A stretch of 64,000 nt of DNA from Paramecium tetraurelia (lineage: Eukaryota), in the NCBI GenBank assembly GCA_000165425.1, contig CT868019.1, forward strand, positions 310,001 through 374,000, read 5' to 3'. Numbering within the stretch: the stretch's first letter is position 1; each line of letters starts with the position of its first letter. The translations under genes and the position numbers were made by a program. The notes under the pieces are model-generated. The model was not told the origin of the DNA, made no database searches, and saw only the letters and a list, made by a program, of their open reading frames with translations. Positions 3,647-4,401 of this stretch are shown piece by piece.

Positions 3647-4401
3647 ATGCAACACGACTCTGAAAGCGAATAATAATATTTCAATGATGCTGATGAATAC
3701 TTTCTCAATCTACCCCAGAAAAGTTGGGAATTCAAACGAGTCAGAGTGCCGAATATCCTCCCTGGAGCCAAAGATATCTACGTCAAAAAGTGGGTCAAAG
3801 TCAATACTCTTTATGACACCAAACAATATAAACCAAGAATCAATTATTAAGCCTCCATCAATAGAACACATCAAGAATTGCAGAGACTTTTAGACAACAG
3901 CACCACTAACCCTCAAGAATTGAGTTCATTACTACAAAAAATGACCCAAATGAAAAAGGTATCACCCCACTTTATCTTACTCATTAGTAGGCTGTAGCTT
4001 AATAACCTAAAATAAAAAAAGTCGCAGCTCCCAAATTCTATGTTTGTCCTGTAACCACATGCAAAAAAACATTCTTTGACAATTCCAAACTCAGAAGACA
4101 TCAATTGGTACACACTGGAGAAAAACCTTTTAAATGTGAATTGTGTCAAAAAGGATTCTCCTTAGATTTCAATCTCAAAACCCATATGCGTACCCACACT
4201 GGAGAGAAACCCTATGTTTGCAAATATCCCGATTGCCAAAAGCCATTCAGTCAGTCAAGTAATCTCACAGCTCACTTGAAAAATCACTAGAATCCTGATT
4301 ATGCTGGTACTCATTCTTATAAACTACACATAGCATCGGAGAGTGAAGAAGTTATAGAGGAACTTGAAGATGAAATTGCTGAAGAGGATGTTGATTAATG
4401 A
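3647..4401 (+). CDS. YY1/Pho-like C2H2 zinc-finger protein (3 fingers, N-terminal REPO/2W-hairpin-like motif, acidic tail)
   Basis: Fingers [81 protein letters not shown] closely follow YY1 fingers 2-4 ([16 protein letters not shown]...FSLDFNLRTH). Intron 3959-3987; possible second intron 4307-4333; TGA at 4399-4401. Confidence 0.9.

Follow-up and report, generated by a model that had tools for sequence, protein, structure and literature searches.

A gene at positions 3647-4401 (+ strand) of the window, the window being the whole stretch of 64,000 nucleotides of Paramecium tetraurelia DNA that was analysed, encodes a small protein with two conserved parts. Three YY1-type C2H2 zinc fingers are present, and near the N-terminus lies a predicted beta-hairpin that carries two tryptophans. 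With moderate confidence, the protein is regarded as a Paramecium YY1-family subunit of INO80. The fingers would read DNA and the hairpin would attach the protein to the actin/Arp module, the two being joined by a partly helical linker. The gene had been singled out in an earlier note, made from the letters of the sequence, as a ciliate YY1/Pho orthologue candidate with a REPO/2W-like motif. Its observation is confirmed; its interpretation is partly supported.

Gene model, copies and neighbourhood

The gene runs from the ATG at 3647 to a TGA stop and is composed of three exons. It is read in the ciliate code (code 6), in which TAA and TAG specify Q. Excision of introns of 29 and 27 nt gives a product of 232 aa, close to the ~230 aa first estimated. 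Exon 1 (3647..3958, + strand) encodes residues 1-104, in which an acidic N-terminus is followed by the DADEYF helix, the hairpin with its two Trp, and a helical linker. Its translation equals residues 1-104 of P0128, which is GSPATT00005632001 of P. tetraurelia, an uncharacterised protein in the source database. Intron 1 (3959..3987, + strand; 29 nt, GTA...TAG) has to be removed because the frame of exon 1 must join that of the fingers. The junction so formed, between MKK and QAVAQQ, agrees with annotated orthologues. Exon 2 (3988..4306, + strand) encodes a basic linker and the three fingers. Intron 2 (4307..4333, + strand; GTA...TAG) is in frame, its 27 nt being a multiple of three, and contains no TGA. 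Exon 3 (4334..4401, + strand) encodes an acidic C-terminal tail with pLDDT < 50 and is closed by the TGA at 4399-4401.

P0128 (241 aa) is an older model that retains intron 2, and it is letter for letter equal to the translation of the window read through that intron. If intron 2 is retained, the disordered tail simply becomes 9 residues longer (GTHSYKLHI plus junction). Intron 2 is left out of 8 of the 9 aligned Paramecium protein models (232 aa; 225 aa in P. bursaria), and the mature product is therefore most likely 232 aa long.

The second copy in P. tetraurelia, GSPATT00024295001 (P0004), is an ohnologue with 217 of 232 residues identical; both copies from the whole-genome duplication have thus been retained. 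Two listed copies each are found in P. octaurelia and P. sonneborni. The copy in the window has V181 and K183, and the ohnologue has S and R at these positions. In the C-x-K-P-F segment of finger C (window 4213-4221; residue 190 of the spliced protein), Pro is present here, Arg in the ohnologue and in seven other Paramecium proteins, and Lys in YY1a. P0123 (P. pentaurelia, 87 aa) shares its first ~28 residues, including the first Trp, with the family and continues as unrelated sequence. It has the appearance of a duplicate that is in decay or wrongly modelled, the intact P. pentaurelia copy being P0127. Neither GSPATT00005632001 nor GSPATT00024295001 is mentioned in the full texts of the literature searched, a scope that covers articles without their supplements.

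Transcription is at a low level. Stranded oligo-dT RNA-seq reads with the same species label cover the + strand along the gene at a depth of ~1-10; the adenylate kinase gene just downstream is covered at a depth of 360-670. No splice joint of the YY1-like gene reached the listing threshold in these reads, the depth being too low to show joints. At positions 3676, 3685, 4176 and 4182, some of the RNA reads differ in pairs (A>G with T>C; C>T with C>T), and these differences are absent from the DNA-like contigs of run X1. Cross-mapping from the ohnologue, or a different strain, may be the source of such reads. Coverage in the opposite orientation extends over 3500-3635, with read ends near 3622-3627, some 20 bases short of the ATG at 3647. 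The neighbouring minus-strand gene thus starts almost back to back with this one, and the shared upstream region is very short.

The remainder of the window is unremarkable macronuclear sequence of Paramecium. It includes the highly expressed adenylate kinase gene (4440-5287), a glycosyl hydrolase family 2 / mannosidase-like gene (5724-8026), a four-repeat voltage-gated cation channel (9715-13941, - strand) and a kinesin (54946-56133, - strand). Further along are an epiplasmin, a DHHC palmitoyltransferase, an NUBPL-type ATPase, a MORN-repeat protein and a kinase.

Zinc fingers

Three C2H2 fingers are recognised in exon 2 (Pfam zf-C2H2, 4.7e-18, three stretches; zf-H2C2_2, 5e-18); no Pfam domain is recognised in exon 1. 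Finger A (4045..4113, + strand) is of C-x4-C spacing, with a first half like YY1 finger 1 and a helix like YY1 finger 2. Finger B (4135..4197, + strand) is of C-x2-C spacing and equivalent to YY1 finger 3. Finger C (4219..4287, + strand) is of C-x4-C spacing, has the helix QSSNLTAH and is equivalent to YY1 finger 4. By Pfam and sequence, three fingers are present where the YY1 family has four. Judged on its residues, the array is of YY1 type, with three fingers instead of four. The proposal of a YY1 orthologue holds for the type of finger; a full four-finger array is absent, and the first finger is a hybrid of YY1 fingers 1 and 2.

The finger region was compared with the PDB (248 sequences with E <= 0.001). 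Poly-finger proteins head the list because the scores of many fingers add up. The top match in a single stretch is YY1 (1ubd_C, 117.2 bits), with query 14-101 aligned to chain 31-118, which holds YY1 fingers 2-4. Other three-finger arrays follow at 90.3 bits (WT1), 84.6 bits (Zif268) and 83.6 bits (the designed consensus finger protein 1mey), which gives YY1 a lead of 27 bits. The match of the three fingers to YY1 fingers 2-4, as first noticed, is borne out by this score and by the specificity positions.

Identical residues were counted by eye, with the zebrafish YY1a fingers given in PMC4770675 as the reference. The YY1 recognition helices of fingers 2-4 read ..SSKLKRHQLVH, ..SLDFNLRTH and ..QSTNLKSH. 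Finger A has 13 of 21 residues identical to YY1a finger 2 and 11 of 23 identical to finger 1. It starts with the CP..C.K.F.DNS pattern of YY1 finger 1 and has a helix of finger-2 type, which agrees with YY1a finger 2 at +2, +3 and +6 and has D in place of E at -1. Finger B has 14 of 21 residues identical to YY1a finger 3, with positions -1, +2, +3 and +6 all identical and the whole SLDFNL.TH helix kept, and it is unchanged across nine Paramecium proteins. Finger C agrees with YY1a finger 4 at 10 of 23 residues, those at -1 and +3 among them; it has S where YY1a has T at +2, and A where YY1a has S at +6. Over the specificity positions (-1, +2, +3 and +6) of the three fingers, 9 of 12 residues equal those of YY1a by eye and the other 3 are conservative. 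Identity of the finger region between P. tetraurelia and P. bursaria is 87%.

Structure and database searches are less specific. With the AlphaFold model as query, Foldseek against the PDB ranks WT1 first (50% identity over 84 columns) and 1ubd_C 18th (50% over 107 columns); it does not discriminate, since any three-finger array matches. In the ESM Atlas, the nearest cluster is a ciliate C2H2 protein and the third is 'Transcriptional repressor protein YY1-like', a name carried by 8 of the 30 nearest clusters and usable as a lead only. A protein search with the finger region gave no protein named YY1 among the 120 matches listed of 3082; poly-zinc-finger proteins dominate there.

The two-tryptophan hairpin

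The candidate REPO/2W-hairpin, W27-W49, lies at 3725..3793 (+ strand), exactly where the motif had been placed. W27 and W49 are the sole Trp residues in each of the Paramecium proteins (9/9). In 11 sequences, W27, V32, R33, P35, N36, G40, I44, K48 and W49 are invariant, both Trp being among them. When P. tetraurelia is compared with P. bursaria, identity is 76% in the block 13-53, which comprises the hairpin and its flank, and 38% in the linker. Just N-terminal to the hairpin is the DADEYF motif (3686..3703, + strand; residues 14-19), with a predicted helix at 15-20. Its residues D, A, D, E and F do not vary among the 11 sequences, metagenomic relatives included. The predicted helical linker (3845..3958, + strand) has helices at 67-83 and 89-108, the second continuing into exon 2 (3988-3999). 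Its pLDDT is ~58-71 (AlphaFold2), and its LLQKMTQ.KK end is conserved in Paramecium.

AlphaFold2 predicts strands at 27-34 and 44-51, whether it is given one sequence or 11. The pLDDT of the hairpin is only 62-72 with the 11-sequence alignment, compared with 78-88 for the fingers; with the single sequence it is ~65, the best part of a poor model.

Relatives of the N-terminus are few. An exhaustive HMMER search of 1.84 billion representatives with the N-terminal profile gave three matches: P. tetraurelia itself, the 87-aa P. pentaurelia fragment and P0124. P0124 is a 58-aa fragment of a metagenomic relative (E 4.6e-5) with the skeleton DADE.F...P...W....VR.PN..G...I...KW.K. Word-index searches with the N-terminus gave nothing outside Paramecium. 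No further hairpin-bearing protein was found among 125 proteins scanned, and none was confirmed in two scans of metagenome contigs (215 and 591 pattern matches). In the ESM Atlas, residues 1-110 gave no usable feature match, all structure rows having TM < 0.5.

Homology of the hairpin to the REPO/2W segment is plausible but not proven. The YY1 REPO string quoted in the earlier note is 100% identical to residues 5-26 of PDB 4c5i_C. The alignment score of the YY1 peptide is reached by 157 of 20000 shuffles against P. tetraurelia exon 1 and by 156 of 20000 against P. bursaria. That of the Pho peptide is not significant against P. tetraurelia (2766/20000). Against P0124, 0 of 20000 shuffles reach the score of the Pho peptide and 7 of 20000 that of the YY1 peptide. 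In a six-frame scan of the window with the YY1 peptide (BLOSUM62; 5112 segments of 50 aa), two unrelated segments outscore the hairpin segment and four tie with it; similarity to the YY1 peptide is thus at the background of the window. A structural hairpin pattern is found in 1 of 141 W-x18-22-W pairs in 127,996 six-frame residues and is reached by 9 of 1,000,000 shuffles, a figure that flatters because the pattern is post hoc, written with both sequences already seen.

In the PDB, HMMER profiles built on the N-terminus gave no YY1, Pho, Ies4 or Rtt102 chain at E <= 10, the YY1 and Pho peptides being in the library. The motif claimed earlier thus stands as a conserved predicted two-Trp hairpin, N-terminal as in YY1/Pho, and its homology is not recovered by these profiles. 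The top PDB match was the hairpin of ribosomal protein eL21 (E 0.26, then 0.017), in which neither Trp is matched. The resemblance to eL21 lies at window 3707-3800 (residues ~21-51), GMPHKCYHGKTGRVYNVT..GIIVNKQVK. It probably reflects common beta-hairpin composition rather than kinship.

The first strand of the Paramecium hairpin, W-E-x-K-x-V-x-[VI], matches the Pho/YY1 contact positions K151, V153 and I155, which are named contacts of Pho with Sfmbt (Alfieri et al., PMC3828522). The second strand, I-x-V-x-x-W, follows Pho F162, V164 and W167. At the 4MBT-groove positions (Pho V153, I155, M158, F162, V164, M166 and W167), compared by eye, residues are kept or conservative (V, V, I, I, V, W) except that M166 is Lys. 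The loop of the Paramecium hairpin is 2-3 residues longer than that of YY1/Pho. The case for REPO/2W identity is made by several features together: the YY1-type fingers alongside, the position in the protein, a predicted hairpin that is conserved, and the link made by P0124, a fragment that may or may not come from a zinc-finger protein.

The INO80 reading and its alternatives

In animals, the REPO segment of YY1 is a 2W-hairpin that docks on Arp4-actin of the INO80 A-module, as fungal Ies4 does (Kunert et al. 2022, PMC9733932). The two Trp of such a hairpin grip actin at its Gly-Pro turn and reach across to the adjacent Arp (PMC9733932). Fig. 1E of the same paper aligns 2W motifs and includes Arabidopsis and S. 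pombe sequences; Iec1 is not named in that paper.

In Tetrahymena, INO80 was purified in a 2025 study, which lists TTHERM_00239260 (XP_001024850.3) as a YY1 orthologue with four fingers (PMC12326766). This protein gave 192 spectra in the IBD2 pull-down and 0 in controls, and 22 spectra with IES2. It co-purifies with Ino80, Arp5, Arp8, Ies2, Ies6 and the actin ACT2, and it peaks 4-10 h into conjugation (PMC12326766). The presence of a YY1 orthologue in purified Tetrahymena INO80 makes the targeting of INO80, as proposed for the Paramecium protein, likely, and for the same reason the proposal is not new for ciliates. TTHERM_00239260 is the most likely candidate for an orthologue of the gene in the window. 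The Tetrahymena study reports no apparent Arp4 orthologue (PMC12326766). The canonical docking site may therefore differ in ciliates, and the 'docking on Arp4/actin' of the earlier note needs qualifying. The words REPO, hairpin, tryptophan, Kunert and A-module are all absent from the main text of that study. Among the matches listed in literature searches, no title on a Paramecium INO80 or YY1 was found for Paramecium and INO80, and the word protist was absent from those for REPO domain and YY1.

The following mode of action is proposed. The three fingers, equivalent to YY1 fingers 2-4, would recognise a core site like that of YY1 and would be connected through a flexible helical linker to the N-terminal two-Trp beta-hairpin. 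The hairpin would anchor the protein to the nuclear actin/Arp module of INO80. The protein would then be a client subunit that reads DNA sequence for INO80, like YY1 in animals, and TTHERM_00239260 appears to play the same client role in Tetrahymena.

The protein resembles metazoan YY1 and Drosophila Pho (PDB 1UBD; 4C5I, 4C5E) in the recognition helices of fingers 2-4. The order of parts is also shared: an N-terminal two-Trp hairpin (predicted in Paramecium), a flexible linker and C-terminal fingers. It differs from YY1 in several respects. At 232 aa, it is shorter than human YY1 (414 aa). Finger 1 either is missing or has become part of finger A, the first two fingers have their C-x2-C and C-x4-C spacings in reverse order, and the His-rich, Gly/Ala-rich and long acidic regions of YY1 are absent. 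Plant YY1 (Arabidopsis) and Iec1 of S. pombe, the latter an INO80 subunit, are likewise YY1-like zinc-finger proteins from outside the animals. Fungal Ies4, Rtt102, Swc4/DMAP1 and BCL7 share the proposed mechanism of a 2W-hairpin on actin/Arp (PMC9733932); they lack zinc fingers, and they gave no sequence match in the PDB profile searches. Tetrahymena YY1 is alike in being a ciliate C2H2 protein called a YY1 orthologue, found with INO80 subunits and actin, and differs in having four fingers as reported, compared with three in Paramecium (PMC12326766).

The protein might instead be an ordinary three-finger transcription factor with YY1-type helices, acting outside INO80, its W...W block being a lineage-specific beta-hairpin unrelated to REPO. 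Such a factor is considered unlikely, and part of the evidence does fit it: the similarity of the hairpin to YY1 is at window background and escapes HMMER, the block is matched best by the eL21 hairpin, its profile reaches no further than Paramecium and two fragments, and Foldseek puts YY1 below generic arrays of three fingers, for example WT1 (50% identity). Against it stands the co-occurrence of YY1-type fingers with a conserved predicted two-Trp hairpin placed N-terminally as in YY1/Pho. The protein has no other Trp, and both are unchanged in 11 sequences; P0124 provides a bridge to Pho, with a score that 0 of 20000 shuffles attain; and a YY1 orthologue is present in Tetrahymena INO80 (PMC12326766). 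If the hairpin is a true 2W anchor to actin/Arp, it could still serve another actin-containing complex, of SWR1, NuA4 or SWI/SNF type. Clients of SWR1/NuA4 (Swc4, DMAP1) and of SWI/SNF (Rtt102, BCL7) bear 2W-hairpins on the shared actin/Arp pair, and the specificity of INO80 clients depends on extra contacts with Arp8 and HSA (PMC9733932). This assignment is nevertheless improbable: a hairpin combined with YY1-type fingers is the INO80 client architecture of animals, and the Tetrahymena protein was recovered with IBD2 and IES2, hence with INO80 (PMC12326766).

Polycomb targeting, which had also been suggested, found no support. A PhoRC-like protein, whose hairpin would recruit an MBT-type or other Polycomb protein to DNA sites and so target Ezl1/PRC2, would be in keeping with the binding of the same hairpin to 4MBT proteins in flies and humans (PMC3828522) and with the first strand (K, V, V/I) kept in Paramecium. 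Against it, Pho Met166, a hydrophobic contact with Sfmbt, is replaced by Lys in Paramecium, and the loop is longer. A review has Ezl1 of ciliates recruited through scnRNA and, in that account, names no YY1 partner (PMC8788455). A PhoRC-like role is very improbable.

A wider form of the INO80 reading is put forward as quite unlikely. The fusion of a 2W-hairpin with YY1-type fingers would predate the split between alveolates and opisthokonts/plants, and a sequence-reading INO80 client would then be near-ancestral in eukaryotes. The ciliate hairpin would dock on actin and another Arp, and INO80 would be directed by the protein to particular sites, among them possibly those acted on in macronuclear development.

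As a YY1-family subunit of INO80, the protein would give the uncharacterised pair GSPATT00005632001 and GSPATT00024295001 a concrete, testable role, that of the DNA-reading subunit. W27 and W49 would be a two-residue handle by which DNA binding could be separated from attachment to the remodeller. The picture of small-RNA-guided Polycomb targeting in ciliates is unchanged. The new points, which concern Paramecium, are modest, namely a conserved hairpin and a minimal form with three fingers. The link between a 2W-hairpin and YY1-type fingers, so far seen in animals, plants and fungi, would be extended by them to alveolates.
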